From NCBI GenBank assembly GCA_003599795.1, contig QZJQ01000007.1:1-58909 (forward strand): a stretch of 58,909 bases of DNA, in the 5' to 3' direction. Made by a program: the position numbers and the translations under genes. This document shows, in pieces, positions 21,337 through 58,584 of the stretch. This stretch comes from Nitrospiraceae bacterium (GTDB taxonomy: Bacteria; Nitrospirota; Thermodesulfovibrionia; Thermodesulfovibrionales; UBA1546). The notes beneath the pieces are model-generated. The model ran no database searches. It was not told the DNA's origin and saw only the letters and a program-made list of their open reading frames with translations. Every line of letters starts with the position of its first letter. Within the stretch, counting starts at the first letter, position 1.

Positions 21337-22665
21337 TCATATCCTCTGCCTGATTGATCCGCCCAAGGCGGATTTCCCTCTTAAATCATGCCCATTAACG
21401 CCGAAAAGATTTCTTACCCATTCTGTCATCCTGTCAAATATCCCGCCAAACATCTCTCCGTTAATTCCGAAAGCATTCGGAACAGTTTCGCCGTCCGTGC
21501 CGTGAAGAATAAGGCCTATGCCTGTTGAATACATCGGATTATTTACACTGCTCTGGAAGAGAGGCGAATTTAAAGCGCAGCTTGACTCTATTCCGGCAGG
21601 CATTCCGATTCTCACTGAAAGCCCCAGATTTGCCTCCATTAGCCTGTCAAGCCCTGCAAGCAGTGATGCGCCGCCTGTCAGTATAACTCCGGACAATCCG
21701 GGTTCAAGCCCGGCGCTGTTTTCTATCTCGCGTTTTATCAGTTCCGTAAGCTCCTCACACCTCGGCTGTATAATCTCTGCTATATACCGCCTCGGTATCT
21801 TTCTTACCTGTTTGTCGGCGCCTGCAACATCCATCTCCTCTGCTTCGTCAATCATACTTGTAATTGCACAGCCGTATTTTTTCTTTATCCTCTCCGCCTC
21901 CTGCACAGGGATTCTCAAGCCAATGCCTATATCATTCGTAAAATGATTGCCGCCAAGCGCAAGAACAGCTGTGTGCCTCAGGCTTCCGTCTTTATATATT
22001 GCAATGTCTGTTGTTCCTCCGCCTATATCAACGAGTGCTGTTCCGAGGTCTTTCTCGTCTTCCGTAAGCACCGCAGCCGCAGAGGCGATGGGCTCAAGCA
22101 CAATATCAATTACATCAATGCCTGCCCTTTCGCAGCACTTAAGAAGGTTCTGCACAGACGAGACAGCGCCCGTGACTATATGAACCTTAACCTCAAGCCT
22201 TACTCCGGCCATGCCAACAGGGTCTTTTATCCCATCCTGCCCGTCAAGTATGAATTCAGTGGGGATTACATGAAGAACCTCTCTGTCAAGCGGAACATAA
22301 ACCACGCTTGCAGAATCAATGGCGCGTTCAACATCCTGGTACTTTACTTCTTTCCCTTTTATGCCTACGGCCCCGTAACTTTCAAAACCCTTTATATGGC
22401 CTCCGGCAATCCCGACATAAACAGACTTTATTTCAATCCCGGCGATTGCCTCAGCGTCTTTTATTGCTTTTTTTATTGAATCAACCGTAGACTCTATATT
22501 TATAACAACGCCCTTTCTCAAGCCCGTTGAAGGAGCTGAACCTATTGCGATAATATCAGTCTTGCCGCCCCTTACCTCAGCAACAATGGCGCATATCTTT
22601 GTTGTGCCGACATCAAGCCCGACTACAATATTCCCTCTTCGTCCGAGCGGATCTTTTATTCTCAT
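21337..22665 (-). CDS. ftsA: Cell division protein FtsA
   Basis: GLDVGTTKI, DIGGGTTD, LTGGAS; dcw position. Confidence 0.96.
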   Translation of the reverse strand: MRIKDPLGRRGNIVVGLDVGTTKICAIVAEVRGGKTDIIAIGSAPSTGLRKGVVINIESTVDSIKKAIKDAEAIAGIEIKSVYVGIAGGHIKGFESYGAVGIKGKEVKYQDVERAIDSASVVYVPLDREVLHVIPTEFILDGQDGIKDPVGMAGVRLEVKVHIVTGAVSSVQNLLKCCERAGIDVIDIVLEPIASAAAVLTEDEKDLGTALVDIGGGTTDIAIYKDGSLRHTAVLALGGNHFTNDIGIGLRIPVQEAERIKKKYGCAITSMIDEAEEMDVAGADKQVRKIPRRYIAEIIQPRCEELTELIKREIENSAGLEPGLSGVILTGGASLLAGLDRLMEANLGLSVRIGMPAGIESSCALNSPLFQSSVNNPMYSTGIGLILHGTDGETVPNAFGINGEMFGGIFDRMTEWVRNLFGVNGHDLRGKSALGGSIRQRI

Positions 22666-23441
22666 CTTATGACCTCGTTAATAGGTTTAACTATGACCTT
22701 GTTTGCAAATCTAAGGTCAATGTAATCAACAGGAATTCCCCTCCGCATTATCTCATCTTCAAGCTCAAGCAGCCTTTGAAGCTTTTCATCATATTCCCCG
22801 TGCCCGACTTTTACGAGCATGCCGTCAACCTGCATGGAAATATCCTCCGGTTTCGCTCCATGAGGTATTATTATCTCTATGCGATCCTTCAGAGCGGTAA
22901 AACCCTTATCCTTCATGGTTCTCACAAGGCTCAGCACATCAGGAAAGACGCTGGCATTTTTGAACGGGTCTCCTGAAATTACCGGCAAAAAAGGAATGGA
23001 TTCTCCTTTTAATTCTTCAAGCATATTACCCTTATCATCCACAAAAAATGTTCGGCCGTTCATTTCAAGAAGAGCATAGGGCATGGACTCCTCAATCCTG
23101 ACCGTAAATTTATGCGGAAAATCCTTCCTGAAACTGACGGCCTTTATCCACGGTGATTTTAAAAGCCTTGCCTCAAGCTCTCCTGACGATAATCCCAAAA
23201 GGCTTTCATTCCCGTTAATTCCCATAATTGCCTTCAGCTCGCTGTCAGAGATATGTTTGTTGCCTGAAAACACGATTTCTTTTACCGGAAACATCGTCCT
23301 TCGCGCAGTATCAACGGCATATTTAGCGCCCCAGTATGCGCCTGTTATAAGCAAAACCAACGCAAATAACTTAAGCAGGCAGCGCCGTTTTTTAGCCTTT
23401 GGCGCCGCTCCCTGCTTATTTATCCTTCTGTTATTCCTCAT
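22662..23441 (-). CDS. ftsQ: Cell division protein FtsQ/DivIB
   Basis: Basic N-tail, single TM, POTRA, YIDLRF; between ddl and ftsA. Confidence 0.88.
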
Positions 23442-24406
23442 CTGTGCTTCCTTTGCTGCCTTTCAATTGCATGTTTAAGAATCTCCTCCGCGAGCGCGGG
23501 AAAATCAAGCCCTGCTTCCTTTGCAATCTTTGGCAGCAGGCTCGTTTCAGTCATGCCCGGTATTGTGTTGACTTCAAGCACATAAGGATTTCCGCCTTTA
23601 TCAATCCTCAAATCAACCCTTGTCGCGCCGGAACAGCCGAGCGCCCTGTTCGCAGAAAGCGCAATATCTTTTGCCTTCGTATACACTGCCTCATCTATTT
23701 GAGGAGGGAGTATATATTCAGTTAGGCCGGCTGTATACTTTGCCTCATAGCTGTAAAATTCAAGCGATGTTTTTACCTCAACGCCTCCGAGCGCTCTGTC
23801 ATTGAGAATCCCTATATGGATTTCCCTGCCCTCTATGTATTTTTCTATGATTACCTCGCTGCCGCATGAGAATCCGGCCTTGAGATCGCTTTCTATCTGT
23901 CCTTTGTCTTTCACTATGCTCACTCCGACGCTTGACCCCTCACTTACAGGCTTGACAACCCAAGGCAGAGGAAAGTTAGGAGTTAAGAGTTGCCCTCCTC
24001 GAGCGGGTTCGCCTGAGGCGAAAGAGTTGAGAGTTTCCGAGTTTTCACTGACGACTGTAAACGGCGGCACGGGAATCTTGTGATAAAGAAATATTTTCTT
24101 TGAAGCCGCCTTGTTCATTGCAACAGCCGAGGAAATAACATCAGATCCTGTATAGGGAATTCCCATAACTTCAAGAAGCCCCTGTATAGAGCCGTCTTCT
24201 CCCCATCCTCCGTGAAGAACAAGAAACGCTATGTCAATCTTCTCTTTTTTCAACGCCTCGCATATGTTGGGCCCCGCATCTATCGCAGCGGCATTATAGC
24301 CGAGTTTTTTCAGGGCCTTGAAAACCGCGCTTCCGCTTCTCAGCGAAACCTCCCTCTCGCTGGATGCGCCGCCCATTAGGACTCCTATCTTTTTAGTTGT
24401 TAACAT
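23438..24406 (-). CDS. ddl: D-alanine--D-alanine ligase (with in-frame repeat insertion)
   Basis: [39 protein letters not shown]. Confidence 0.95.
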
Positions 24407-24420
24407 AGCAACCTCTCAAC

Positions 24421-24480
24421 AGGGTTCAAGCAATTCAACCTTTCACCCGAACCCTTGAATCCTCTAACCCTCAAACCCTT
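24421..24480. repeat. Octamer tandem array (AACCCTTG-like)
   Basis: cccgaaccc ttgaatcc tctaaccc tcaaaccc, with a complementary agggttcaag upstream. Confidence 0.55.
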
Positions 24481-24481
24481 T

Positions 24482-25432
24482 TTATTCATCTCTCCCCACA
24501 ATCCTTATCTCCGTCTCAAGCTCTGTGCCGAAAACCTTCATTACCTTTTTTTTCACCTCATCCATAAGCTTCAAAAAATCTGACGCCTTCGCTTGGCCTT
24601 TATTGATAAAAAAATTTGCATGCACTCTGCTCACTTCAGCATCTCCAACCCGCATCCCCTTGCAGCCTGCTTCATCTATCAGCCTTCCTGCGGATGCGCC
24701 TCCGGGATTCTTAAATACGCAGCCCGCAGACATCTCTGACAGAGGCTGTGTCTCGCGTTTCTGCTTAAGAAAAGAATCTATCTTTTTTTCAACATCCTCC
24801 TTCACTTCCTTTCTCAGCCTCATGTTTGCGCTCAGGATAACAGCTCCTTCAGGCAGCATTGACGCCCTGTATTCAAGCCCGAGTTCAGAGACGCTCATCT
24901 CGTAAATCCCCTTATCAGAGTGCATTAATCTTACAGAGACAAGCGCATTCTTTATTGAATAGCCGAAGGCCCCTGCATTCCCCGCAATTGCGCCTCCGAC
25001 AGAGCCCGGTATGCCTACCAGGCCTTCAATGCCGGAGTATCCGTTTTCTCTTGAAAAACTCACAAGTTTTTGAAGCGGAGTTCCCGACTCGGCAAAAAAC
25101 AGGACCATATCCTTCTCTTCCTTTGCAATGTCATTGCGCCTGAAATTCTTCAATGAAATAACCACTCCGTATATCCCGCCGTCTTTCACAAGGATATTAG
25201 TGCCTCCGCCAACTGTCACAAAAGGTATGCGTTCTTCATTCAGCACGGTAAGAATGTTTTCCAGAGACACCGTGTCCTGCGGGCATGTGAAGACGTCTGC
25301 CTCGCCGCCTATCTGGAGATATGTATGCGCCTTCATGGGCTCCTTGAACTTCACCTCGCCATGAACTTCCAGGGAAGAAACCATCTTCTGCCACAGACGC
25401 TCATCCACTACAGTTTGCTTTTTAGTTGCCAT
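24482..25432 (-). CDS. murB: UDP-N-acetylmuramate dehydrogenase
   Basis: GGGTNILV, GIPGSVGGA..NAGA, SAGCVFKNP, HANF. Confidence 0.95.
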   Translation of the reverse strand: MATKKQTVVDERLWQKMVSSLEVHGEVKFKEPMKAHTYLQIGGEADVFTCPQDTVSLENILTVLNEERIPFVTVGGGTNILVKDGGIYGVVISLKNFRRNDIAKEEKDMVLFFAESGTPLQKLVSFSRENGYSGIEGLVGIPGSVGGAIAGNAGAFGYSIKNALVSVRLMHSDKGIYEMSVSELGLEYRASMLPEGAVILSANMRLRKEVKEDVEKKIDSFLKQKRETQPLSEMSAGCVFKNPGGASAGRLIDEAGCKGMRVGDAEVSRVHANFFINKGQAKASDFLKLMDEVKKKVMKVFGTELETEIRIVGRDE

Positions 25433-26831: not shown

Positions 26832-26844
26832 TTTCGCTCCAGCT

Positions 26845-26916
26845 AAATTTAAAATTTAAAAGTAAAAATTCAAAGATGATGAAGTCATTAATTTTGAATT
26901 TTTCATTTTGCATTTT
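26845..26916. repeat. Inverted heptamer arrays (AAAATTY / RATTTTK)
   Basis: aaattta aaattta aaagtaa aaattca ... aattttg aattttt cattttg catttt. Confidence 0.6.
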
Positions 26917-28012: not shown

Positions 28013-28035
28013 ACAACATCCTCTGCAACAAAGTA

Positions 28036-28182
28036 GGGTTCGAGGGTTCGCGGGTTCGAGAGAAAATCCAAGAGTCCGAGCGTCAAAGTGTCAGCGTCTT
28101 CTACACTTTGATACTCTGATACTTTGATACTGTTTTTCTTTGATTCCTTGACCCCTTGACCCCTTGACCCCTTTTGACCCTT
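28036..28182. repeat. Compound octamer arrays between ftsW and murG
   Basis: (GGGTTCGA)x3, GTCAAAGT-like units, (CTTTGATA)x3, (TTGACCCC)x4. Confidence 0.75.
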
Positions 28183-29350
28183 AATTCTTTGTGCCATATA
28201 CCGCCCTCAATGCTTTTTTCCTCATTACCAGTTCTTTTGTCCTGTCAAAAACTCTTCTGCTGTCTTCTCCTTTTGAAAGATTAAGCAGAATGCCGACTGC
28301 CGCCATATTCACGAGCAGAGACGACCCCCCGTAACTTATAAACGGAAGCGGAAGCCCCTTTGTCGGAATCATCCCTGTTACAACAGAGAAATTTATCAGC
28401 GCCTGAAGCGCAATCATTATTGAAAGGCCGAAGGACAGATAATACACAAAGCTGTCTCTGGCCCTGTTAGTAACGGCAATTCCCCTCACAAACAACATCA
28501 CAAACAGCAAAACAATCACTCCCGCGCCTATCAGCCCGAGTTCTTCGCCTACGAGCGAAAAAATAAAATCCGTATGGGTTTCAGGCAGGAACAACAGCTT
28601 CTGCTTGCTCTCGCCAAGGCCCACTCCATTAATGCCTCCGCTGCCAAGGGCAATAAAGGATTGTATAAGCTGAAAGCCGCTTCCCTGAGGGTCATCCCAC
28701 GGATTAAGAAAAGACGTGACACGTTTCCACCTGTAAGGCTCTCTTATAAGTTTCACCACTACCGGGAGCGCAAATATTGCAATGGATAATAAATACCGCA
28801 ATTTCATGCCTGAAAAAAACAACATGGCAAGCGTAATTATGCCGAGGCTTATGGCAGCTCCAAAGTCAGGCTGTTTAAGGAATATAACCTGAAACACCGC
28901 CATAATTGCGACAGGCTTTATAAAAGAGGCAAAGCTGTCTGTCCTGTAATTATACGATGACATATATTTAGCAAGGAATATAACCATTGAAAGCTTTACC
29001 AGCTCCGAGGGCTGAAAGGTTGAGGGCCAAAGCTTCAGCCATCTTTTTGCTCCTCCTGCCGATATTCCCATTCCCGGAACAAAGACAAGGACAAGAAGCA
29101 GAAAGGAAAACACAAGCAAAGGCAGGGCTGCCTTCTTTAGCATCTCAGGCCTCAATCTGTAAGCGGCAAACATCACAGCAAATCCGAGCAGCATTGTAAA
29201 CAGATGCCTCTTAAAATAAAAAAACTGCGTCACATCTTTTTTTAACATCGCAGGGGATACAACTGCCGTTGAACTGTATATCATGAGCGCACCCAGTCCC
29301 AGCAAAAAAAACGTGATTAACAAAAGCCACCTGTCATACGTTTTATTCAT
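28181..29350 (-). CDS. ftsW: SEDS peptidoglycan polymerase FtsW
   Basis: GAKRW, QPSELVK, QPDFG, PETHTDFIF, PTKGLPLPFISYGGSS. Confidence 0.96.
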   Translation of the reverse strand: MNKTYDRWLLLITFFLLGLGALMIYSSTAVVSPAMLKKDVTQFFYFKRHLFTMLLGFAVMFAAYRLRPEMLKKAALPLLVFSFLLLVLVFVPGMGISAGGAKRWLKLWPSTFQPSELVKLSMVIFLAKYMSSYNYRTDSFASFIKPVAIMAVFQVIFLKQPDFGAAISLGIITLAMLFFSGMKLRYLLSIAIFALPVVVKLIREPYRWKRVTSFLNPWDDPQGSGFQLIQSFIALGSGGINGVGLGESKQKLLFLPETHTDFIFSLVGEELGLIGAGVIVLLFVMLFVRGIAVTNRARDSFVYYLSFGLSIMIALQALINFSVVTGMIPTKGLPLPFISYGGSSLLVNMAAVGILLNLSKGEDSRRVFDRTKELVMRKKALRAVYGTKN

Positions 29351-29351
29351 C

Positions 29352-30812
29352 TCAGTACAAATCCCTCACAATCTTTTTAAACTGCTCTCCCCTGTCTTTG
29401 TAATCCTTGAACATATCAAAACTCGCGCACGCGGGAGAGAGAAGCACAACATCGCCTTTTGACGCCGCTTTTCCGGAAATCATTACTGCTTCTCTCAGGC
29501 TGTCCGCAAAAACAGTCTCTGTCAGCCCGCCGAGAACTTCCTTTATCTTTTCTCTTGCCTCTCCGATGAGAACAAGTTTTTTTACCCTGCTTTTTACGAG
29601 AGGGCTCAGGAGAGAAAAATCTCCGTCCTTGTCCCTTCCGCCGGCAATTAAAATGACCGGTACTGAGAAACTCTCAAGCGACTTCACAACCGCATCCACA
29701 TTCGTGCCTTTTGAGTCATTGATGTAATCAACTCCCTCAAATTCCCTGACAAGTTCAAGGCGGTGTTCCAGCCCTTCAAACTCTTTTAAGACTTTCACTA
29801 CTGCCTCTGACGGACATCCTGCAAGGAGAGCCATGGCCGAAGCAGCCATGGCATTCTCCAGGTTGTGAACCCCTTTAATTTTTATTTCATCAGCGCGCAG
29901 AAGTTGAGAGTTAAGGGTTAAAAGCGAAGAATTGAAGTTAGAATAAATAACTCCGTCCTTGGAATAAATTCCGTTTACTTCTTTTTTACGGCTGAAGAAA
30001 TATACGTCAGGTAATCTTGAATCTTGAATCTTGAATCTTGAATCGTATAATCTCATTGTTTCCCTGTCATCCGCATTAAGGACAAGGTAATCTCCTTCCC
30101 CATGATTTGCGAATATCCGCGCCTTAGCATCCTTGTAATTCTCCATTGAATGATATCTGTCCATATGGTCAGGCGTGATATTGAGTATAGCTGCGCCTGC
30201 AGGCCTGAATGTCTCTATTGCCTCAAGCTGAAAACTTGACACCTCAGCGACGATGAAATCAACTTTTAATTTTTCACTTTTAACTTTCAACTTGTTAAGT
30301 TCCTCTGTGAGCGCATTCCCTATATTCCCTCCCATGACTGTCCTGAAACCGCCTTTATTCAGCATCTCATTTAACAGCGTTGTAGTGGTTGATTTTCCGT
30401 TTGTGCCTGTTATTGCCAGAAAGGGAATTGGGGATTGGGGATTAGGGATTGGAGTTGTTTCTTTTGCCAACCCCTGACCCCTAACCCCTAATCCCTGAGT
30501 TGCCTGATACGCAAGTTCAAGTTCACCGATAATTCTTATCCCCATCTCCCTTGCCTTCTTTAACGGAGCAATGTCCGACGGCACGCCCGGACTCAGCACT
30601 ATCATATCCACACCCTGCAGGATGCCGTCAGGATGCCCGCCGAGACTAAGCCTTATTGTAGGCAAAAGCCTCTCAACATATTTCATTAGCGCTTCTTTCG
30701 GCTTGCTGTCAGTAACCGTTACCTTTGCTCCAAAATGCGCAAGCAGATTTGAAGCGCCGGCTCCGCTCTCCGCAAGGCCGAAAACAAGTATATTCTTATT
30801 CTTTAGTTCCAT
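29352..30812 (-). CDS. murD: UDP-MurNAc-L-Ala--D-Glu ligase (four in-frame repeat insertions)
   Basis: TGTNGKSTT, EVSSFQL, NDSKGTN, SPACASFD; start ATG 30812 (MELKNK). Confidence 0.95.
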   Translation of the reverse strand: MELKNKNILVFGLAESGAGASNLLAHFGAKVTVTDSKPKEALMKYVERLLPTIRLSLGGHPDGILQGVDMIVLSPGVPSDIAPLKKAREMGIRIIGELELAYQATQGLGVRGQGLAKETTPIPNPQSPIPFLAITGTNGKSTTTTLLNEMLNKGGFRTVMGGNIGNALTEELNKLKVKSEKLKVDFIVAEVSSFQLEAIETFRPAGAAILNITPDHMDRYHSMENYKDAKARIFANHGEGDYLVLNADDRETMRLYDSRFKIQDSRLPDVYFFSRKKEVNGIYSKDGVIYSNFNSSLLTLNSQLLRADEIKIKGVHNLENAMAASAMALLAGCPSEAVVKVLKEFEGLEHRLELVREFEGVDYINDSKGTNVDAVVKSLESFSVPVILIAGGRDKDGDFSLLSPLVKSRVKKLVLIGEAREKIKEVLGGLTETVFADSLREAVMISGKAASKGDVVLLSPACASFDMFKDYKDRGEQFKKIVRDLY

Positions 30813-31929
30813 ACGCCACGTTTCTAATAATCCCTTTATTTTTTGTTTTTTTACCTTCCTCCGCAGGAACAGCATCTTCTTCTTTATCAGGCCTTGCCCT
30901 GTTAGTCTTCTTCTTTGATAAAACCCTGTCTGATTTTGTTTTATTATTTTTTGAATATGCCTTTAACTTTAAATTTTTATTTTTTGACTTTGTCGCCTCG
31001 GCAGTTCGCCCGCGGCGAGAACTTTTCTGATAATCCGCTTTTGTGAAATAAACAACAGGCTGTTCATTGCTTGCAATAACAGCAAAGCCTTTTGTTTCTA
31101 ACCGCTCCGCCTCATTCCACAAAGTCTCTCTGCTCTGCGCTCCCAGAATAGCAACTATCACCATTCCGCCTTCTTTTTCGCCGGCATACACAAAACAATG
31201 CCTCGCCGCTTTCGTATATCCCGTCTTTCCACCGACTGCGCCATTGTCAGACCACAGAAGCCTGTTAGTGTTCTCAAGGGCTATGGTCCTGCCCTGTTCC
31301 GTAGATATCTCAGCCTCTTTTTTGCCTAAAATCTCTCGTATCACAGGATATTTAAGCGCATGCCTCATTATCTTAGAGAGGTCATAAGCTGTTGTATGCT
31401 GGCCTTTCCCCGGAAGTCCTGTAGTATTTATAAACCTTGTATTATATGCCCCTATTGCAACAGCCTTTTTATTCATTAGCTGCACAAATTTCTTCTCCGA
31501 GCCCGCAACAACCTCTGCAAGGGCAAAAGCAGCGTCATTTGCCGACCTTATAAGAGCTGCATAAAGCAGGGTTTCCACAGTCAGGGTTTCTCCTGCCTTC
31601 AGCTTTGTCTCTTTAAGCGAGGGGACCTTTGCCGCCGCCTCGCTGATTGTCACTGTATCGCTCATGTCAGCCCTGTCAAGGACGACCATGGCTGTCACAA
31701 GTTTAGTTGTGCTTGCAGGAGGCAGTCTTAGGTTTGGATTTTTCGCAAACAACACCCTGCCTGTTGAAGCCTCCATGACAACCGCAGCCTTTGAGGAAAT
31801 TTCATCAGCAGATGCCGCAACGGCCAAAAATGCAAAATTTAAAATTAAAAATGCAAAAATAAAGAAGATTTTAAAATTTTGAATTGTAATTTTGAATTTT
31901 GATTTTTGAATTTTGAATTCCATTTTCAC
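30796..31929 (-). CDS. D-alanyl-D-alanine carboxypeptidase (peptidase S11) with basic C-terminal tail
   Basis: PASTTK, SAN and KTG motifs. Confidence 0.9.
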
Positions 31930-34368: not shown

Positions 34369-34390
34369 AACCTCTCTAAAAAATCTGATG

Positions 34391-34446
34391 CATGATTCAT
34401 GATTCATGATTCATGTTTTTTATCCTGCATCCTGTATCTTGTATCC
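34391..34446. repeat. Heptamer arrays (CATGATT)x3 and (ATCYTGY)x3 forming the MurE C-terminus
   Basis: catgatt catgatt catgatt catg ... atcctgc atcctgt atcttgt. Confidence 0.75.
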
Positions 34447-35936
34447 TCTTTAAGTTTCTCCTTTATAGCTTTCTCTGCTGTCCCCCTGTCGCTGAATTTA
34501 TGCCTTGCGCCCTTTATCTCCTGATAATCCTCGTGCCCCTTGCCTGCAATAAGCAGTATGTCGCCCTTTTCTGCGGTCTCCACTGCCTTCTGAATAGCCT
34601 TCTCCCTGTCAGGTTCAATTGTATAATTCATCCTCACTGCGCCCTTCTCTATCTCTTTTATTATCTCCATCGGTTCTTCGCTGCGGGGGTTATCAGAGGT
34701 TATCACTATATAATCGCTCAGTTTTGTTGCTATCGCTGCCATTTGCGGCCTCTTTCCCCTGTCCCTGTTGCCGCCGCAGCCAAAAACAGTAATGATTTTC
34801 CCCTGACCCTCTATAAGTTCTCTGGCAGCGCATATCAGCCTTTCAAGCGCATCTTCTGTGTGAGCATAGTCAACTATACAGAGAAAATTCTGCCCGAGGT
34901 CAACCTTTTCAAATCTTCCCTTTACAGAAACCATCTTCTTTATTCCGCTTATTACCGCTTCCCACGGCACATTCAGGCTAACAGCAGCGCCGACAGCAGA
35001 GAGTATGTTATAAACATTGTGCGTGCCTACAAGCGGAGACTGAATATTGTAGGTCCTGCCGTTGAAATTAATATCAAACACAAGCCCGTCAAATGAGTTT
35101 TTAATATTCGCCGCAGCAATATCCGCTCCTGCTTCAATGCCGTATGTAATCAAATTTCCAACTTTTGAATTCCTCAATTCAGATATCAATTCTCTTCCGT
35201 AAATATCGTCAAAATTTATTACAGACGTCCCGTCTTTCAAAAGAAGCTCTTTAAACAGCCTTTCCTTTGCCCTGAAATAGTCTTCCATTGTTATATGAAA
35301 ATCCAGATGGTCTCTTGTAAGATTTGTGAAAACTGCAATGCTGAACCCCGTATAGTCCACCCGCTTCTGCGCAAGAGCATGGGATGACACTTCTGTCACA
35401 ACATGAGTGCACCCTGCTGAAACCATTTCGTTCAATACAGCCTGAAACTCAAGCGCCTCAGGCGTGGTATGAGGGGCGTCATAATGCCTGTCCTTCACAA
35501 GATAATTGATGGTGCCTATAAGCCCCACATTTTCCCCCCATGCCTCAAGGACTGACTTTATAAGATATGTTGCCGTTGTCTTTCCGTTGGTTCCGGTTAT
35601 ACCTATAACAGTCAACTTGTCAGACGGCCTTTCGTAAAAATTATTGGATAGGCACGCAAGAGCCTTCCTGCTGTCAGCGACTTTGATGAATACGGGAATC
35701 GGTGAATCGGTTGCTGTTTTTTCCTCTTCATAAACCACCGCGACTGCGCCTTTCTTAACTGCCTCGCTGATAAAATCATGGCCGTCAACACGCTCGCCTT
35801 TTGCGGCAACAAAGACATAGCCTTGCCTGACCTTCCTCGAGTCATAGGCGATCCCCGCCACCTCAACATCATCCGCCGCTGGCGGACTGGTCATCTCTTT
35901 TATCTCCATATCCTTTATAAGCATCTTTAAGTTCAT
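34404..35936 (-). CDS. murE: UDP-MurNAc-Ala-Glu--meso-DAP ligase
   Basis: [17 protein letters not shown] (DAP-specific), AGKGHE. Confidence 0.96.
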   Translation of the reverse strand: MNLKMLIKDMEIKEMTSPPAADDVEVAGIAYDSRKVRQGYVFVAAKGERVDGHDFISEAVKKGAVAVVYEEEKTATDSPIPVFIKVADSRKALACLSNNFYERPSDKLTVIGITGTNGKTTATYLIKSVLEAWGENVGLIGTINYLVKDRHYDAPHTTPEALEFQAVLNEMVSAGCTHVVTEVSSHALAQKRVDYTGFSIAVFTNLTRDHLDFHITMEDYFRAKERLFKELLLKDGTSVINFDDIYGRELISELRNSKVGNLITYGIEAGADIAAANIKNSFDGLVFDINFNGRTYNIQSPLVGTHNVYNILSAVGAAVSLNVPWEAVISGIKKMVSVKGRFEKVDLGQNFLCIVDYAHTEDALERLICAARELIEGQGKIITVFGCGGNRDRGKRPQMAAIATKLSDYIVITSDNPRSEEPMEIIKEIEKGAVRMNYTIEPDREKAIQKAVETAEKGDILLIAGKGHEDYQEIKGARHKFSDRGTAEKAIKEKLKEDTRYRMQDKKHES

Positions 35937-35951
35937 CTATTTTAAAAAAGT

Positions 35952-36003
35952 ATCAAAGGGTCAAAGGGTCAGAGAGTCAAAGTCTCTGATACTCTGACAC
36001 TCA
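35952..36003. repeat. Inverted octamer arrays between ftsI and murE
   Basis: tcaaaggg tcaaaggg tcagagag tcaaag ... ctctgata ctctgaca. Confidence 0.65.
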
Positions 36004-36012
36004 GTTTCAACC

Positions 36013-38991: not shown

Positions 38992-38996
38992 CGCCT

Positions 38997-46104: not shown

Positions 46105-46125
46105 TCTTCGTTATAAGGCAATTTC

Positions 46126-46197: not shown

Positions 46198-46199
46198 GC

Positions 46200-47204: not shown

Positions 47205-47220
47205 CTGCCATTATCCTTTC

Positions 47221-47315: not shown

Positions 47316-47387
47316 GGAAATTTTCACATCCAAAAGCAGGACTCTGAGAAATGACAAAAGTATCGAATTATGTTGTATAATAAATCC

Positions 47388-48283: not shown

Positions 48284-48308
48284 GGCAAAAACAATTTCCG
48301 TCAACAAT

Positions 48309-50873
48309 ATGCAAACCTCTATAGTCATAAAAGGCGCGCGGGAGCACAATCTCAAGAACATCAGCGTATCCATACCCAGAGAAAAGATAACTGTTATCAC
48401 CGGCCCCTCGGGCTCCGGCAAATCATCCCTTGCAATTGACACAATCTACGCCGAGGGACAGAGGCGGTATGTTGAAAGCCTTTCAGTATATGCAAGGCAG
48501 TTCCTTGAACAGCTTCAGAAACCCGACGTGGACCTTATTGAGGGGCTTTCCCCTTCCATTGCAATTGAGCAGAAAACAGTTACGAAAAGCCCGCGTTCAA
48601 CACTCGGCACAATAACCGAAATCTATGACTATATGCGTGTGCTTTACACGCGGATTGGAAAACCTTACTGCTATAACTGCGGTTCGCTTATAGCCGCGCA
48701 GGAGGCTCAGAACATAATAGATTCCGTTGTGTCACTCCCTCAGGGAACACGCATACAAATACTTGCGCCTATTGTCAGAGACAGAAAAGGTGAATATAAA
48801 AAAGAGCTTTACGATATGCTGCGCGACGGGTTTATAAGGGCGAGGATAGACGGCGTGATGTTTGACCTCACACAGGATATAAAGCTGAAGAAACAGCAGA
48901 GGCATACCATCGAGATTGTTATAGACAGGCTTCTTATAAAAACAGGGACTGAAAGGCAGATAAAGAGCGCGATTGATTCAGCATTAAAATATACGGACAC
49001 CGTTATAATTAATCTCATAGACAAAAACAAGGACATCCCTTTCAGCAGGACCATGGCATGTCCCAACTGCAGCATAAGCTACCCTGAGATTAATCCGAGA
49101 TTTTTTTCCTTCAACAGCAAATACGGAGCCTGCCCGAGATGCCACGGCATCGGGTTTGAAAACATCGGCGAGGATTTTGAGGCCGAAAAACAGGACTTCG
49201 GAGCTATAACCGATGAGGAAGTGGCCGGGTTATCAGCGTGCAAGGCGTGCAAAGGCATGAGACTGAGAAAAGAGGCGCTGAGCATAAAAATAAACGACAC
49301 AAACATAGCTGAATTTTCAAGAATGTCTGTCATCAACGCAATTCAATTTATCAATGCGCTTAAGCTTACGGACCGGGAACAGACAATAGCTTCGCGCGTG
49401 CTGAGAGAAGTCAAAGACAGGCTTTCGTTTCTCAATAAGGTCGGCCTCGGTTATCTGACAGTTGACAGGCTTTCGCTTACGCTTTCAGGCGGTGAAGCGC
49501 AGAGGATACGACTTGCAACGCAGATGGGCTCGTCCCTCACAGGAGTGCTTTATGTCCTTGACGAGCCAAGCATCGGGCTTCATCCAAGAGACTGCAAAAA
49601 ACTGCTTGAAAGCCTTTCGTCAATAAGAGACTCAGGAAATACAGTGATAATAGTTGAACATGATGAAGATACCATAAACTGGGCTGACCATGTCATTGAC
49701 ATGGGGCCGGGCGGAGGGCTTAGAGGCGGATGGATAACCGCAGAAGGCCCGCCTTCTGTTATCAGGGATAACAAAAACTCATTGACAGGCAGATACCTCA
49801 AAGGCGAACTGAGCATACCAGTGCCTGCAAAGAGGAGAAAATCAAAAGACTTCATCCATATCAACGGCGCGTCAGAATTTAATCTTAAGGATATAGATGT
49901 CAAGATGCCGCTGGGCCTGTTTACATGCATAACAGGTGTTTCAGGTTCGGGCAAGAGCACGCTGATATTTGAAACTCTATACAAAGCTATCGCCGGAAAA
50001 CTATATAAAAGCGCGCTCATCCCGGGAAAGCACAGGGAAATTACAGGCATGGAAAAAATTGACCGCATAATATGCGTGGACCAGTCTCCGTTGGGACGCA
50101 CGCCCAGGTCTAATCCCGCGACTTACACCGGGATATTCACATACATCAGGGAACTCTTTGCGCAGATTCAGGATTCAAAGATACGGGGATATACTGCATC
50201 GCGCTTCAGTTTTAATGTCGCATCCGCCTCAGGCGGAGGAAGATGCGAGTCCTGCCATGGCGGAGGCACGCTTAAGGTTGCCATGCATTTCCTTCCTGAT
50301 GTTTACATCCCATGCAATGTATGCAAAGGCAAAAGATACAATAAAGAGACGCTTGAAATAAGATATAAAGACAAAAACATAGCTGAGGTCCTTGCGATGA
50401 CGGTTTCAGAGATGCTCCGGTTCTTCAGCGCAATTCCGCTTATACGCCAGAGGCTTGAAATACTTGAAGACGTGGGGCTCGGATACATTCAGCTTGGCCA
50501 GTCCGCGACAACTCTCTCAGGCGGTGAAGCTCAAAGGGTAAGGCTTTCAAGAGAATTCGGGAAAAGGTCCTCCGCCTCAGGCGGAGGAAACACTCTTTAT
50601 CTGCTTGACGAGCCTACGACAGGACTGCACTTTGCCGACATTCAGAAACTCCTTGATGTCATAAACAGCCTCATAGACCTCGGAAACACGGTGGTTGTGA
50701 TAGAGCATAATCTTGACGTGATAAAGTCATCTGACTATATAATTGACCTTGGGCCTGAGGGCGGAGAAAAAGGCGGAAGGGTCATAGCCGCAGGAACACC
50801 TGAAGAAGTGAGCTCAAATCCTGATTCGTATACGGGGATGGCTTTGAAAAATAAATTAGCGGTGAATAGATAA
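48309..50873 (+). CDS. uvrA: Excinuclease ABC subunit A
   Basis: GAREHNLKN, two Walker A motifs (GSGKS), LSGGEAQR x2, zinc fingers. Confidence 0.96.
50223..50585. repeat. Two identical TCCGCCTCAGGCGGA palindromes in frame in uvrA (50223-50237, 50571-50585)
   Basis: Both encode SASGG at normally conserved motifs. Confidence 0.8.
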
Positions 50874-50881
50874 ATGGGTGA

Positions 50882-51943: not shown

Positions 51944-51948
51944 AGCTA

Positions 51949-53078: not shown

Positions 53079-53120
53079 AATATCCTTGACATTTACTCCC
53101 CTAATGTTTGACAATTCATT

Positions 53121-54056
53121 ATGACTACTAAAAAAATGAATTTTAAAAAACTACTGCTAATCCTATCAGGCGGCATCATCCCGCTGGGCTTTATTTTTTA
53201 CTCATCTGTTTTTCTGGCAACGACTTCATGCGAACCTCCGGCTTATACACCGCCGCAGGTTTATTACCGCCCGATACCTCAATTCGGCGATTTATATTCA
53301 TTCCCGAAATATAACATACCTGAAGCCAGAAAACCCGGCAGTGCAAATCTGACGGTGGTAATAACAGTCCCTGAATATAAAGACACTGCCACGCAGGAAT
53401 ATGTTGGCGGGGCCAAGGTAGCTGCAGGCGGTCCCATGACGCCTGATATGCGAAAGGTCTTCAAGAGTTTTGCCGGAAGCATGGGTGAGGATATTCAATC
53501 GCAGTTAGTTGCCAAAGGCATGACAACAAAAGGCCCTTTCAGCATGGCTGAGGTTACATACCCTGACAAAAAAGGCTCTGACCTCACAATTTCAACAGGC
53601 GTTATATTTGACATTCATTACAGCGACCCTAAGTTTAAGGAACGGGCAAACTTTGAGGGAGGAATTTCGGGGAATGTTTATACCACCACAATGTCTGTTG
53701 GCATGAAAGTCTTCTTCTATATGCTTGAGCCGATGTCGGAGGAAAAGATGTGGATAAAAAAGCTGGACCTCGGGGTTCAGGATTTTCCGGCTGAGTATGC
53801 TGTGGGACAGGAGCAATATCAAACAGGAACTACTCCGCGTACATCTGATGGTTGCGGGGGTTATTACGGGGGACATCCTACCTACGGTTGGAGAGACAAA
53901 GGCACTCTCTATGATGAAAGGGCCAAGATATTCTCTGATATATTGAAAACAGCTTATCCGCAGGTAATGAAAGCTGCATGGAATTATCTGAACACAGATG
54001 AGATGCTCAACCTGAAAATGAAATCTCAGGAAATCAGGGAGAGGAAGAGATATTAA
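53121..54056 (+). CDS. Hypothetical probable lipoprotein
   Basis: Basic N-terminus, hydrophobic stretch, atypical lipobox LATTSC. Confidence 0.6.
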   Translation: MTTKKMNFKKLLLILSGGIIPLGFIFYSSVFLATTSCEPPAYTPPQVYYRPIPQFGDLYSFPKYNIPEARKPGSANLTVVITVPEYKDTATQEYVGGAKVAAGGPMTPDMRKVFKSFAGSMGEDIQSQLVAKGMTTKGPFSMAEVTYPDKKGSDLTISTGVIFDIHYSDPKFKERANFEGGISGNVYTTTMSVGMKVFFYMLEPMSEEKMWIKKLDLGVQDFPAEYAVGQEQYQTGTTPRTSDGCGGYYGGHPTYGWRDKGTLYDERAKIFSDILKTAYPQVMKAAWNYLNTDEMLNLKMKSQEIRERKRY

Positions 54057-54124
54057 GGACTCATCTCCCTCGAGCCGCTCGGGGGTTCATAACAATATCT
54101 TTTATTTAATATCTTCCATCTGAA

Positions 54125-54964
54125 ATGTTACCTTCTATTTATTTCGGCAGCCTGGAAATTTCTACCTGGCGGCTCGCCGCTCTCGGCAGTGTAGTGATAT
54201 GCTGGATTCTCTTTCTGATACGCTCAAAAAAACTGGGTTATTCATTCTATGCGATTTTCCCGTGGTTATTATTTGCCCTGCCGGTCGGCACCTTAGGGGC
54301 TCATCTTTTTAATAAGCTGATTCCTGTTCTTGCCGGGTCTACTTACAGTCCCTCTAATTCTTTTTCCGGCCTTACCGTAATCGGAAGCATTATATCCATC
54401 CTGATATACAGCCTTCTTTACATCAAGTATGTGATGAAAACTCAGCCCATGCCTCTTATGGATGCGGTTGCCTTTACATTTCCTCTCTCAGTCCTGTTAG
54501 GCCGCATAGGCTGCCTTCTGGCCGGATGCTGTTACGGAAGAACAGCTCCTGAATCAATCGGCGCTTCTTTCCTTTCAGCCTTTACGCTGCCTCTTGATTT
54601 CTATACTCCTGCTTCAGAGGCCGGGCAGGCATATCATGACATGCCCCTTAACACCCTTGTATGGAACCTGCCTTTATTGTTTATGCTTGAGGCTTTTGTT
54701 ATATTAGTGATTACTGAAGCCTTGTATCACAAGCGTGAAAAATGGAACCTGCATCCGGGGACGGTCTTTGCATCAGCAGGCGCCCTGTATTCAGGCGGAC
54801 GGTTTTTTTTAGAGTTTATGAGGAAAGATGAGATGGTCGGCAATACTATTTTTAACGCCTGGCAGCTGGCTACATTGGTTCTCTTTCTGTTTTTTACTTT
54901 CTGGCTTTGCTTCAGCCTGTACAGGAGGCGTCAAAATCTATCGCATAACAAGGGAGGCGTTTAA
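54125..54964 (+). CDS. Divergent prolipoprotein diacylglyceryl transferase (Lgt) family protein
   Basis: GRIGC..AGCCYG and Y..GRF..EF.R motifs, multiple TM; lacks HGG and HPxQLYE. Confidence 0.75.
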   Translation: MLPSIYFGSLEISTWRLAALGSVVICWILFLIRSKKLGYSFYAIFPWLLFALPVGTLGAHLFNKLIPVLAGSTYSPSNSFSGLTVIGSIISILIYSLLYIKYVMKTQPMPLMDAVAFTFPLSVLLGRIGCLLAGCCYGRTAPESIGASFLSAFTLPLDFYTPASEAGQAYHDMPLNTLVWNLPLLFMLEAFVILVITEALYHKREKWNLHPGTVFASAGALYSGGRFFLEFMRKDEMVGNTIFNAWQLATLVLFLFFTFWLCFSLYRRRQNLSHNKGGV

Positions 54965-56494
54965 ATGAGAATAATTTTTATAAATCCAAAGCATCATCCC
55001 CATTCAATGAATTTTCACCATTGCATGGACCTTGTAGGCGTGAAATATTCTCACCTGCCGTTGTCTCTTCCTACGCTGGCAGCGCTGACCCCTGCGGACT
55101 GCAGCGTCGGGCTTATTGATGAAAATGTTGAGGCTGTAAATTTTGAAACCGATGCTGATGTTATTGCCTTGACCGGCTCGGTGCCCCAGAGAAAGAGGGT
55201 TTTTGAATTAGCGGACGAGTACAGAAAGCGCGGAAAATTTGTAGCTATCGGCGGGCCGATCTCATTTGACATGCCTGAAGAATGCAAAGCGCACGCTGAT
55301 ACGGTTTTTATCGGCGAGGCTGAATACACATGGCCTGCGTTCATAGATGATTTCAAGCAAGGGAAACAGAAGAGCCTCTACCATCAAAAAGAATTTATAA
55401 ATATTGACGATTCTCCGGTTCCTCATTTTCATCTGATGAAAACAGGCCAGTACGCAAGCGGATGCATTCAGGTAACGCGGGGATGCCCTTACCGGTGCCA
55501 CTTTTGTGATATTCCCATAAAGTACGGCGGACAGCCACGCTCTAAAAAAATAGAACAGGTTCTCAGCGAAATAAGAATTCTTTCAGAACTCGGCAATGAT
55601 TCGGTATTTATTGTGGACGACAATTTCGCAGGCAACAAACCGTATGCCAAAACCCTGTTGAAAGAGATAGCCGGCCTGCTTCCTTCTCTTCCGACCAAGA
55701 TGTACTTTTATACTCAGGCGGCCCTTGATGTGGCGAACGATGATGAACTGCTGAATTTATTCCGGGCGGCAAATTTTCTCAGGCTGTTCATAGGAATAGA
55801 GACCGGAGATAAAGGCAAACTGAGCGAACTGAACAAGAGACATCAGGTGGATATGGACATAAACCGCGCTGTTGAAAAGATCAAGTCCTACGGCATCACA
55901 GTATGGGCCGGCATCATGTTCGGGCTTGAAAGTGATGACCTGTCGTCTTTTGACAGGCAGCTTGAGTTTATCCGTGATACCAACTTTATCCCTGTACAGG
56001 TAGGACTGCTGCAGGCGCTTCCGGAAACCCCTCTTTACAGGCGCGCTCTGGAGACGAACAGGCTGCTGCAACTCCCCTCCTTACTCGGACTGACAGCGCT
56101 CAGCGAGGAAGAACTCTCCAAGGCAACGAACCTGATTCCGCAGAAGATGAGCGAGGAGGAGCTTGAGAAAAACTTTGCGCGCATCCTGAGAAAAATGTTC
56201 TCGCCGGAATCCTTCAGGCTGAAGATGATTCAGTATATCGGCTCTAACACCAGAAACCTGACATCATCAATGCCTGCCCTCAACCTAAAGACAGCAATGA
56301 TACTGGTGCGCATGCTTTCGTTTTACCTGTTCCGGGCTGACAGCAAAACGCGAAAGATGTTCTTTCATGTGCTTAAGGCTCTCGTGTCTCACAGGCTGCG
56401 GAATCTGGATGAGACTGTTTTCCATCTTCTGGCATACAAACACATGCAAACGCACTACTATAGAATAGCGGCTATCTGTGAATCCAAGAGATGA
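54965..56494 (+). CDS. B12-binding radical SAM protein (HpnP/DUF4070-like)
   Basis: N-terminal cobalamin-binding-like domain, RGCPYRCHFC, FIVDDNF, FIGIET. Confidence 0.88.
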   Translation: MRIIFINPKHHPHSMNFHHCMDLVGVKYSHLPLSLPTLAALTPADCSVGLIDENVEAVNFETDADVIALTGSVPQRKRVFELADEYRKRGKFVAIGGPISFDMPEECKAHADTVFIGEAEYTWPAFIDDFKQGKQKSLYHQKEFINIDDSPVPHFHLMKTGQYASGCIQVTRGCPYRCHFCDIPIKYGGQPRSKKIEQVLSEIRILSELGNDSVFIVDDNFAGNKPYAKTLLKEIAGLLPSLPTKMYFYTQAALDVANDDELLNLFRAANFLRLFIGIETGDKGKLSELNKRHQVDMDINRAVEKIKSYGITVWAGIMFGLESDDLSSFDRQLEFIRDTNFIPVQVGLLQALPETPLYRRALETNRLLQLPSLLGLTALSEEELSKATNLIPQKMSEEELEKNFARILRKMFSPESFRLKMIQYIGSNTRNLTSSMPALNLKTAMILVRMLSFYLFRADSKTRKMFFHVLKALVSHRLRNLDETVFHLLAYKHMQTHYYRIAAICESKR

Positions 56495-58002
56495 AAATAT
56501 GCCTTATCAACCCGCGCTTGCCGCTTTCACTGTGGGATTTTTCTTATTCCAGAGACCTTGACGGCAATGCTTTTCCCTTCCCGCCGTTATCGCTTTCTAC
56601 CTTAGCCGCTTTAACTCCGGAGAAACATGAAGTCCTCATATGCGACGAAAATGTCAAGCCTGTTGATTTTGACACAGATGTTGATATAGTCGGCATTACT
56701 GGCTACCACATCCAGAAAGAGCGGGTTTATCAACTGGCAGACTCATTCCGCAGCAAAGGAAAAACTGTGGCCCTCGGAGGGCCCTTCGTCCAAAAATCAA
56801 ATCTTGACGAGTGTGCAGAACATGCCGATGTTGTTTTTCTGGGAGAGGCTGAATATACATGGCCGTCATTCATACGCGATTTTCAATCAGGCAATACTAA
56901 ATCTTTATATGCGCAGGAAGAATTTGTGGATTTAACAGCTTCCCCTGCTCCCCGCTTTGACCTGCTTGAGCTTTCGGCATATTCAACGGCAATCATTGAA
57001 ACATCGCGCGGCTGTCCGCATTCGTGCGAGTTCTGCGAAATACCGATTCGCCTTGGCAAGCGGCCCCGGAATAAATCAGCGGAACAGGTGATGACAGAGA
57101 TTCGCAGCCTATACGCACTGGGCGCAGATTCCATTTTTATCATTGATGACAACTTCTTCGGGAATCGTAAAAGGGCCTTAGAGCTTCTTTCTGAAATCGA
57201 GCGTTTTGTCAAATCCATTGACTACCGGCTTTATTTCAGCTGCCAGTTCACAATAGATATTTCGCGTGACGAAGAGATTCTGTCTCTCATGAACAGGGCC
57301 AATTTCAGGCGCGTGTTTGTCGGCATAGAGACTCCGCGTAAACTCAGCCTGACAATGGCAGGAAAAAACCAGAACACCAATGTAGACCTGCTGGATGCTG
57401 TTCAGCGCATTCAATCAAACAACATAATCGTGTGGGGAGCTTTTATTGTAGGCTTTGACGCTGATGACACTAATATATTCAATGAGCAGCTAAGGTTTAT
57501 ACATGCAGCGTCAATCCCCGTTGCCATGGTTGGAATACTTCAGGCAATTCCCGGAACACCGCTGTACGAGCGCATCAGGCAAGAAGGCAGATTAAGGGAC
57601 AATGAAGAAGGCGGCATAAGAGGGGCTGTTAATAGCCTTATACGAACAAACATCGCACCGCTTAATATGGGCCTTGAAGAGCTTGCCAATGGATATGGAT
57701 TTCTGGTCCGGAATTTATACAGTTATGATAATTTTGCCGAAAGGCTGATAAATGCCGTTAAACTCGGTAAAAAGCATGGAGTCAAAGGCCGGGCAAAAAT
57801 CAGTAAAAAGGGGATCCTGACCTTGCTTCGTCTTTTTAAATATTACGTTTTATCAACCGACCTGCGCAGAATTTATATGTTCATGCGGATTATCGCTCAA
57901 ACGCTCCTGCACAACCCTCAGCATGTGCAAACCGTGCTCATGCACCTCGTCGTATACAAACATCTTAAGCTATTCTATGAACATGGGACATCTTCCAATT
58001 GA
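56491..58002 (+). CDS. B12-binding radical SAM protein (paralog)
   Basis: RGCPHSCEFC, FIIDDNF, FVGIETP, FIVGFD. Confidence 0.88.
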   Translation: MKICLINPRLPLSLWDFSYSRDLDGNAFPFPPLSLSTLAALTPEKHEVLICDENVKPVDFDTDVDIVGITGYHIQKERVYQLADSFRSKGKTVALGGPFVQKSNLDECAEHADVVFLGEAEYTWPSFIRDFQSGNTKSLYAQEEFVDLTASPAPRFDLLELSAYSTAIIETSRGCPHSCEFCEIPIRLGKRPRNKSAEQVMTEIRSLYALGADSIFIIDDNFFGNRKRALELLSEIERFVKSIDYRLYFSCQFTIDISRDEEILSLMNRANFRRVFVGIETPRKLSLTMAGKNQNTNVDLLDAVQRIQSNNIIVWGAFIVGFDADDTNIFNEQLRFIHAASIPVAMVGILQAIPGTPLYERIRQEGRLRDNEEGGIRGAVNSLIRTNIAPLNMGLEELANGYGFLVRNLYSYDNFAERLINAVKLGKKHGVKGRAKISKKGILTLLRLFKYYVLSTDLRRIYMFMRIIAQTLLHNPQHVQTVLMHLVVYKHLKLFYEHGTSSN

Positions 58003-58054
58003 TTTTGCTTCCTGCGCGCAGTATTATATTTCTAAAGGATGATAAGGAGAAACA

Positions 58055-58528
58055 ATGCTGACAGCTAAAGACATAATGACAAAGAATGTGACAACAGTTA
58101 ACGCATCAACCACAATAGAAGAACTGGCACGGATACTCATGGAACTTAAAATCAGCGGCGTGCCGGTTGTAGATGATAATGAAAACTTAATCGGCATAGT
58201 CACGGAAAACGACCTTATAAGCCGGGACAAAAGGCTTCACATTCCTACTGTGATGAGGCTTTTTGACGCATTCATTGTCCTTGAAAGCCAAAGCAAGATA
58301 GAAAAAGAGATTAAAAGGATGACAGCAATTACAGTGAATGACATCTATACAAAAGATGCCATAACTGTTGCTGAAGGCACGCCTGTTCAGGACATCGCCA
58401 CCATAATGTCTGAAAAAAAGGTTCACCTTATCCCTGTTGTTGAGGGGAAAAATGAGAAAAAAATTATCGGCATAATCGGCAAGATAGACTTAATCAAAGG
58501 GATAATTCGCCCCGGCGAATCCGCTTGA
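58055..58528 (+). CDS. CBS domain protein
   Basis: AKDIMT, ISGVPVVD, GIVTENDL tandem CBS. Confidence 0.88.
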   Translation: MLTAKDIMTKNVTTVNASTTIEELARILMELKISGVPVVDDNENLIGIVTENDLISRDKRLHIPTVMRLFDAFIVLESQSKIEKEIKRMTAITVNDIYTKDAITVAEGTPVQDIATIMSEKKVHLIPVVEGKNEKKIIGIIGKIDLIKGIIRPGESA

Positions 58529-58584
58529 GGCGGACAGGCAGCGCACAATAAAAACATCTTCTGTTATAATTATTTAATAAAAAA

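Follow-up and report, generated by a model that had tools for sequence, protein, structure and literature searches.

The DNA analysed here is a stretch of 58,909 nucleotides (nt), referred to as the window, which forms contig C3 (QZJQ01000007.1) of a metagenome-assembled genome (MAG) from the Thermodesulfovibrionales (Nitrospirota). Its subject is a very short GC-rich hairpin, TCCGCC-NNN-GGCGGA, that lies within or at the ends of several protein-coding genes. The assembly, G000, comprises 1.40 Mb in 63 contigs at 44% GC and is ~75% complete. The best named relatives of its UvrA come from Nitrospirae/Thermodesulfovibrionales MAGs, and the hairpin-carrying lineage is a group of groundwater bacteria. 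Pfam matches identify FtsA, a D-Ala-D-Ala ligase (ddl), a Mur ligase, and a CBS-domain protein among the genes concerned, together with a Peptidase_S11 (D-Ala-D-Ala carboxypeptidase) encoded by the open reading frame (ORF) 30796..31929; the Mur ligase is named murE from its position in the gene cluster. UvrA (48309-50873) is 854 amino acids (aa) long and, like its orthologs, shorter than the 916-993-aa full-length solved UvrAs that it matched. A second uvrA paralog, of ~940 aa, lies on contig C2 of the same assembly. The hairpin copies in the window are as follows.

21358..21372, minus strand: single 15-nt hairpin in the C-terminal tail of ftsA, sense loop TTG, read SALGG, 7 codons upstream of the stop
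23993..24022, minus strand: double-hairpin module in ddl, made up of TTCGCC-TCA-GGCGAA and a second, degenerate hairpin, within a 7-8-nt repeat array
30992..31018, minus strand: 27-nt double-hairpin module in the C-terminal part of the Peptidase_S11 gene, a clean +27 without target duplication; G005 has the empty site
35872..35886, minus strand: single hairpin close to the N-terminal end of the Mur ligase, here called murE, read SPPAAD
50223..50237, plus strand: single hairpin in uvrA, ahead of the C-terminal zinc-finger cysteines, read SASGG
50571..50585, plus strand: another single hairpin in uvrA, also read SASGG, in the loop that joins the ABC signature helix to Walker B
58506..58534, plus strand: double hairpin of 29 nt closing the CBS-domain gene at its 3′ end, with the TGA loop of its second hairpin as stop codon

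A hairpin family in one bacterial lineage

The exact motif occurs four times in the window, against 0.01 expected, and none of 100 shuffles reaches four. The matches, at 21358, 35872, 50223, and 50571, are those listed by a sequence-only reading of this DNA, which also gave the correct peptides (FtsA, SALGG; Mur ligase, PPAAD; UvrA, SASGG at both sites). That reading held that an element of 12-15 bp spreads into coding DNA while keeping the frame, and on the whole our analysis supports it. Two of its copies are more complex than it supposed. The ddl variant TTCGCC-TGA-GGCGAA does lie at 24008, but as part of a 27-29-nt two-hairpin module rather than as a single 15-mer. At the CBS gene, the TGA loop indeed supplies the stop of ORF 58055..58528, but the copy at 58520-58534 carries one mismatch (TCCGCT), belongs to a double-hairpin module, and shifts the frame, giving a protein with the end ...IIRPGESA* rather than ...ITGRAQ*. 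There are accordingly two module types, a 15-nt single hairpin, T-CCGCC-NNN-GGCGG-A, and a related double hairpin of 27-29 nt. The 15-mer forms a perfect hairpin with a 6-bp stem and a 3-nt loop (-5.9 kcal/mol as DNA).

A genome-wide count, proposed in the sequence-only reading as a check for over-representation, bears it out. The 1.4-Mb G000 assembly contains 11 exact copies of TCCGCC-N3-GGCGGA and no TCCGCC/GGCGGA pair with any other spacer from 0 to 9, while the reversed-motif control is absent. Allowing 0, 1, and 2 mismatches yields 11, 13, and 64 copies, versus 0, 1, and 45 for the control. TCCGCC is also the commonest stem among the 492 perfect 6-N3-6 palindromes of G000, followed by TTCGCC (7), CTCGCC (4), and GTCGCC (4). 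A wider family, YCGCC-N3-GGCGR, has 36 copies (control, 4), 33 of which are spanned by an open frame of 90 aa or more, according to a crude ORF test that used no gene caller. Exact copies number 58 in G003, 18 in G008, and 14 in G005, with no control match in any of the three. The wider motif occurs 13-78 times across the genus, four and two times in two sister genera, and at low numbers in most order-level relatives. The 29-mer double-hairpin pattern was found at 15 loci among 185,579 species' genomes, all of them Nitrospirae-type MAGs, and the hairpin family is also seen in nine named MAGs. An extended 21-mer form occurs singly in many phyla, mostly tipping long hairpins, so the central hairpin sequence is not unique to this lineage. 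The family itself consists of lineage-specific, non-coding, non-autonomous GC-rich mini-hairpin repeats. In the literature searched, which did not extend to subscription journals, neither a 12-15-nt in-frame hairpin nor repeats of Thermodesulfovibrio are described; what is new here is a shorter, lineage-specific hairpin family with a quantified insertion rule.

Filled and empty sites

All 11 UvrA relatives examined (82-96% identical) lack four residues at both sites, FNVA[SASG]GGRCE and KRS[SASG]G, as do the solved UvrA chains 2r6f and 9gxw, compared residue by residue; the earlier claim that deleting 12 nt restores the usual spacing at either site therefore stands. At the first site the DNA change is clean, from GCA-GGAGGA to GCA-TCCGCCTCAGGC-GGAGGA. 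At the second, the 15-mer takes the place of the codon ACA, and nine of the 11 relatives align across the site as DNA, all without the 12 nt. Public contigs that span the uvrA sites, from four sequencing runs, likewise lack the 12 nt, one of them being 98% identical over 155 nt. These contigs come from relatives, RNA contigs of run X19 among them, and carry no information on expression of the insert.

The remaining window copies show a range of states. The murE hairpin is shared with G003, with a one-base loop difference, while G001 and G008 lack it and are 9 nt shorter. The 29-mer at the CBS end is present in G000 and G001 and missing from G002, G003, G005, and G008, where the protein ends ...GITGRAQ*. 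The double module of the Peptidase_S11 gene is not the only clean +27 without duplication; another is seen in G001 versus G000, G003, and G008. The ftsA tail is a hot spot, with five different states in five congeners: G008 has no hairpin, and G001, G003, and G005 have CCCGA-type hairpins there. At the corresponding point of Ddl, relatives have different repeat arrays or a shorter loop, and for this reason ddl offers no clean empty site. The search for empty sites in orthologs, which the sequence-only reading had suggested, was thus successful for both uvrA copies, murE, and the CBS end, gave a single congener without the hairpin for ftsA, and failed for ddl. Taken beyond the window, in-frame insertions in intact genes with empty sites in relatives comprise both uvrA copies, murE, copies on contigs C17, C24, C44, and C46, and 12 sites filled in a relative. 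The copies are derived insertions and not ancestral residues.

To define the insertion rule we compared 24 single-hairpin sites at which one congener is filled and another can be aligned without the hairpin; 11 are filled in G000 and 13 in G003 or G005. The net changes in length are:

Net +12: 17 of 24 sites, the 15-mer standing in place of three target bases (the best alignment in every +12 case)
Net +9: 3 of 24 sites (murE, ftsA, and C9:32068)
Net +21: 1 of 24 sites
Net +24: 2 of 24 sites, both compound
Net +8: 1 of 24 sites (G005 L205, probably non-coding)
Plain +15: 0 of 24 sites

The proposed unit of 12-15 bp can therefore be stated more exactly, as a 15-mer that replaces three target bases. 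None of the 24 alignments shows a target duplication, and no fixed target sequence emerged across them; a target rule exists as far as the exchange of 15 bases for three is concerned, at 17 of 24 sites, but not as a sequence. Retention of the frame, as first proposed, holds at those same 17 sites but not at the CBS end or the +8 site. Frame-keeping is partly a matter of selection, because the +8 case is probably non-coding and the insert at the CBS end causes a frameshift. A 5′ untranslated region (UTR; C9:14558) holds one of the +12 cases, so the loss of three bases is not obviously due to selection for frame, although non-coding cases are too few to settle the point. Two further candidate rules were dropped: a CA directly before the insertion preceded six of the 10 sites of the first set but only three of 11 G000 copies, and conversion of the replaced triplet into the loop matched at only 1-2 of 10 sites, read by eye.

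In coding DNA the hairpin could be read in several ways, yet one predominates. Among 25 distinct coding sites, S-A-x-G-G accounts for 19, P-P-x-A-E/D for four, and R-L-R-R for two (P = 3e-5). To judge from the translations, surviving genic copies would mostly appear as a flexible Ser-Ala-x-Gly-Gly in loops and tails, a bias that fits survival of the most harmless peptide in such places.

Spread of the hairpins and rival explanations

The copies carry a record of how they arose. Loops in G003 (n = 50) comprise TCA/TGA (26), TAA (8), TCT (7), TTT (4), and TCG (3), and these multi-copy subfamilies indicate that copies are made from copies. Two pairs of copies lie within 400 nt of each other in G000, against 0.17 expected (P = 0.009), and in G003 four of five neighbouring pairs agree in loop and orientation (P = 0.004), one of the G003 pairs being a 66-nt tandem duplication. 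Of the C27 pair, G003 shares the older copy with G000, and the newer one occurs in G003 alone. Often a new copy appears no more than a few hundred bases from an existing one and matches it in loop and orientation; together with the loop subfamilies, this argues that copying is replicative and often local. Flanks are shared as well. The two uvrA copies have 19 nt in common, including the native GGAA of the first site, and two copies on G003 contig C99 have GGAGC in common. Pairs with a common flank of at least 4 nt number 15 in G000 (5.9 expected), and pairs with at least 6 nt number eight in G003 (0.65 expected). Local trees are mosaic: shared ancestry fits C24, C44, and the CBS end, while those of C17 and C9:14558 need independent events at one site.

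That these are real, replicatively spreading insertions is very probable. For the route, we conjecture that spread would involve the hairpin as single-stranded DNA while the genome is replicated or repaired. The template would be an existing copy, often a nearby one, and a short patch with the stable hairpin would be written into the new site by template switching or stray single-strand annealing, as in short-patch illegitimate recombination. No element-encoded enzyme would be involved, and selection would then remove out-of-frame or harmful copies. Patch copying is favoured, weakly, because no partner gene emerged; as a specific mechanism it is tentative and may well prove wrong. Insertion and patch copying combined make up the best explanation we can offer, and we hold it at slightly short of even likelihood.

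Several observations weigh against this explanation. The constant exchange of 15 bases for three is not predicted by a loose patch mechanism, and short-patch recombination has no drive known to us that could raise families of 11-58 copies. Seven of the first 10 sites showed microhomology of the replaced triplet to the ends of the hairpin (P = 0.011), but this was not sustained in seven sites added later (~1/7, read by eye), and we dropped it as a rule. GGACAG follows copies with three different loops, which suggests a longer element or a target preference instead. The stems, moreover, are conserved. Orthologous copies in different species differ at 0 of 60 stem positions in the five pairs computed, and at 4 of 96 when three more shared sites, read by eye, are included, against 69 of 450 flanking positions (P = 0.0025); loops differ at 5 of 15. 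One 3′-UTR site shows a compensatory stem change, TCCGAC/GTCGGA, and at two sites besides ftsA another genome has a hairpin of a different family (e.g., G008 L201 versus G000). Either there is constraint on the hairpin at the nucleic-acid level, or the same sites are used more than once. The conserved stems point to constraint on the hairpin, through a function or through an enzyme that reads it. Neither patch copying nor a hairpin-reading enzyme accounts for the three-base loss, the conserved stems, and the re-use of sites. A preprint puts short-patch illegitimate recombination at <~1e-12 per cell in wild-type Acinetobacter (bioRxiv 10.1101/2023.11.22.568220).

The main rival explanation is a non-autonomous element, like those of repetitive extragenic palindromes (REPs) or PATEs, moved in trans by an HUH/Y1 transposase (RAYT or IS200/IS605 TnpA) that would read the folded hairpin and insert it with no duplication of the target, the enzyme being either unassembled or as yet undescribed. 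We consider this somewhat unlikely. The hairpins resemble REPs, BIMEs, and REPINs in being GC-rich, in having a conserved stem (above the flank rate) with a variable loop, in their single and double forms, in lineage-specific copy number and bursts, in local hopping, and in the lack of target duplication. Moreover, Y1_Tnp (PF01797) genes occur in nine of 10 congeners, and the IS200-type elements of G005 and G014 terminate in hairpins whose core is CCGCC/GGCGG. These elements (L105, on a 549-nt contig of G005, and L106 in G014) encode a 143-aa Y1 transposase, and their ends are CCCCGCCT-GTAA-AGGCGGGG and CCACGCCT-GTAA-AGGCGTGG. The claim that the hairpin must be mobilised in trans if it is mobile fits our results, in that nothing is encoded by it and no Y1 or RAYT gene was found in the assembly. 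Co-occurrence with RAYT/TnpA (HUH) genes, proposed there as a check, is in contrast not supported. Neither G000 (75% complete) nor G001 (100% complete, 29 copies) has a Y1_Tnp match, although G001 carries an insertion of its own, and across the 31 genomes in which partner-gene candidates were sought, copy number is uncorrelated with Y1_Tnp count (Spearman rho 0.17, p = 0.37). Such absence is weak evidence and tells little in favour of patch copying, because MAGs often fail to assemble multi-copy transposase genes; the G005 element, assembled as a contig of its own, shows how they drop out.

Other properties are also unlike those of transposase-borne elements. REPs are described as 20-40-bp imperfect palindromes with a GTAG or CGTC tag, mainly extragenic and accompanied by a RAYT gene, although some are intragenic (PMC3116915, PMC3733652), the last point being in favour of the rival. 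Our hairpin, at 15 nt, is below that size range and mostly within genes. No GTAG or CGTC tag is found in the flanks of 36 G000 and 35 G003 copies, whose only feature is a G/T-rich first base. Nor is there the fixed tetra- or pentanucleotide target and replication strand bias of IS200/IS605 PATEs and MITEs, judged from the 24 sites and from a small sample of asymmetric loops compared with GC skew (TCA 6:4, TGA 3:3). Finally, three target bases are lost here, whereas precise HUH insertion does not remove target bases.

Function offers a different kind of account, in which the hairpins are retained, and possibly also taken up, for the work they do as RNA or DNA structures (e.g., stabilising mRNA, marking processing sites at the ends of genes in long operons, or binding proteins as palindromes), so that their spread reflects selection and not selfish copying. 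The stem conservation at synonymous positions between species, the compensatory change at the 3′-UTR site, and the different hairpin families at one spot (the ftsA end, and L201) would all be expected, as would copies at gene ends (the ftsA tail, the murE start, the CBS stop, and a 5′UTR). Yet copies come and go between close species, sit at arbitrary positions inside enzymes such as UvrA, and range in number from 2 to 78 among family members. An RNA-level test on five wobble mismatches, in itself uninformative, showed no sense-strand preference (3-4/5), and no Rfam family matches; the contexts of the 29-mer gave neither a tRNA nor an Rfam identity. We regard this account as improbable. A further idea, which we think unlikely, is that the 15-nt hairpin is a self-propagating DNA unit without an enzyme of its own. 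Its stable fold would let the single-stranded patch be written during replication, always at the cost of three target bases, and its conserved stems would reflect upkeep by the cell or by a hairpin-reading protein. If true, it would be the smallest replicating genetic element described and would steadily place four-residue loop insertions in essential proteins.

Two explanations remain. Hairpins might originate on the spot, by fold-back or quasi-palindrome template switching at Gly-rich GGN GGN stretches, their likeness being due to mutational convergence. Many targets do precede GGN codons, the hairpin is directly followed by G or T in 51 of 70 flanks, and the same 21-mer tips long hairpins in unrelated phyla. 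However, fold-back on the native uvrA GGAGGA would yield TCCTCC and not TCCGCC, identical 15-mers occur at unrelated sites, loop subfamilies are multi-copy, and most replaced triplets are unrelated to the hairpin; such an origin is highly improbable. An assembly or binning artefact in the G000 MAG is scarcely credible. Both uvrA insertions are specific to G000, spanning contigs in the four public runs lack them, and no sequencing run containing the window was found (best share 0.26). Against this, orthologous shared copies of the family occur in the independent assemblies G001, G003, G005, and G008, and the family in the nine named MAGs, and the insertions, which lie mid-contig, keep the frame and have one defined sequence.

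Candidates other than Y1 transposases were also set aside as partners. A reverse transcriptase was not found in eight of the 10 congeners. The four-helix protein of 23S-rRNA intervening sequences gives rho 0.28 against copy number, and its cassettes in G000 are flanked by octamer arrays without the mini-hairpin. DUF559/Vsr-like nuclease cassettes end in a different, CCCCTCC-type hairpin, although one DUF559 cassette has a double module nested in its hairpin loop. Loss of RecJ, as a means of raising patch recombination, fails because RecJ is found in 30 of the 31 genomes and was missed only in the incomplete G000. CRISPR repeats are not the hairpin source in G000, which has no arrays. The RecJ match of 17 of the 30 relatives falls into two pieces near model position 146-150, with the frame open throughout, which suggests an in-frame insertion in recJ there.

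Among described systems, the comparison with Rickettsia palindromic elements (RPEs), made in the sequence-only reading with the proviso that the present element is far shorter, is apt. Like RPEs, the hairpins are palindromic, lie in frame inside functional protein genes, would be read as extra residues, have no encoded transposase, and show empty sites. They differ in measuring 15-29 nt (net +12 for the 15-mer), in being polymorphic between congeners, and in replacing three target bases. RPEs, which are ~10x longer at ~100-150 bp, belong to families RPE-1 to RPE-8 of an intracellular alphaproteobacterium and are mostly old and fixed; our comparison is by description (length and behaviour) and not by sequence. 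Ogata and co-workers, in 2000 and 2002, and Claverie and Ogata, in 2003, reportedly saw in RPEs extra surface residues of their host proteins. Their work on RPEs is cited in PMC3733652. The hairpins also share with cyanobacterial SDRs recognition as mobile through precise filled/empty pairs alone, nesting in other repeats (here in repeat arrays and in the hairpin of a DUF559 cassette), and lack of a transposase; they differ in phylum and sequence and have a shorter unit. SDRs, described by Elhai and colleagues in 2008, are said to be very small mobile repeats of ~20-27 nt, mainly in non-coding or repeat DNA. To our knowledge neither an exchange of 15 bases for three, net +12, nor the dominance of one frame is described for them. 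The three-base replacement also resembles that of SPDIR microindels, in which a short piece of ectopic DNA from elsewhere in the genome, joined at microhomologies, takes the place of a few bases of the target, without duplication or a dedicated enzyme (bioRxiv 10.1101/2023.11.22.568220); microhomology was seen here in the first set of sites but hardly in the later one. SPDIR events are one-off, variable in sequence, and very rare, unlike one defined hairpin in tens of copies per genome.

These hairpins move the lower size of dispersed, replicating insertion DNA to 15 bases (12 net) and are among the shortest repeats yet seen acting like mobile DNA, which raises the question of how a hairpin so small is recognised and copied. 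They are a recurrent source of in-frame insertions and deletions in essential proteins (UvrA, FtsA, Mur ligase, Ddl, and a DnaK-region protein in a relative) and so bear on the evolution of protein loops. In practice, insertions of four residues can lead alignments, phylogenies, and annotation of Nitrospirota MAGs astray, as with the changed CBS stop codon.

Other repeats in the same genomes

Hairpins made of tandem heptamer or octamer arrays occur in the same genomes, also in frame in housekeeping genes; the closest relatives in print are the cyanobacterial STRR repeats. The arrays are AT-richer tandem runs of 7-8-nt units with a locus-specific sequence, in contrast to the one constant GC-rich sequence of the mini-hairpins. 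The double-hairpin module often lies inside or at the tip of such arrays, and since arrays exist both with and without mini-hairpins, the latter were inserted secondarily. In the dcw cluster of the window, nearly every intergenic spacer is a long imperfect hairpin whose arms are tandem runs of different 7-8-nt units (e.g., GTTAAAA/TTTTAAC, GGGTTCGA/TCAAGGGG, and GGGGATT/AATCCCC), and similar pieces are dispersed in the genomes of relatives. These spacer hairpins lie at:

21240-21330
24407-24487
26833-26905
28020-28185
30260-30300
30420-30505
31811-31927
34375-34458
35945-36010

G000 also contains 25 copies of another hairpin family, (T)CCCGA-N4-6-TCGGG(A) (e.g., C9:14114, C44:12997, and C1:43986). 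Some of these are the tips of evident rho-independent terminators, and some lie in frame in genes where other genomes have the TCCGCC hairpin, as in ftsA of G001, G003, and G005.

Larger units that include the double hairpin were seen in several relatives. The MurE gene of G005 (L102, orthologous to window position ~35715) contains two tandem 35-nt units, each a double hairpin plus TGAATCGG; read in two frames, they make up a 19-residue insertion that G000 lacks. In a 'Nitrospira sp.' MAG (L174 and L167), a 29-nt double hairpin follows an apparent 5′ half of a class-II tRNA (GGAGGGGTGCCAGAGTGG...), for which ARAGORN calls no tRNA. In several Nitrospirae MAGs (L165, L166, L169, L170, L175, L177, and L012) the 29-mer lies inside a longer conserved repeat without an Rfam match, GAGGCAAAATCCTC-[29-mer]-GGAGTCA...CGACCGAGAATGAGCG.

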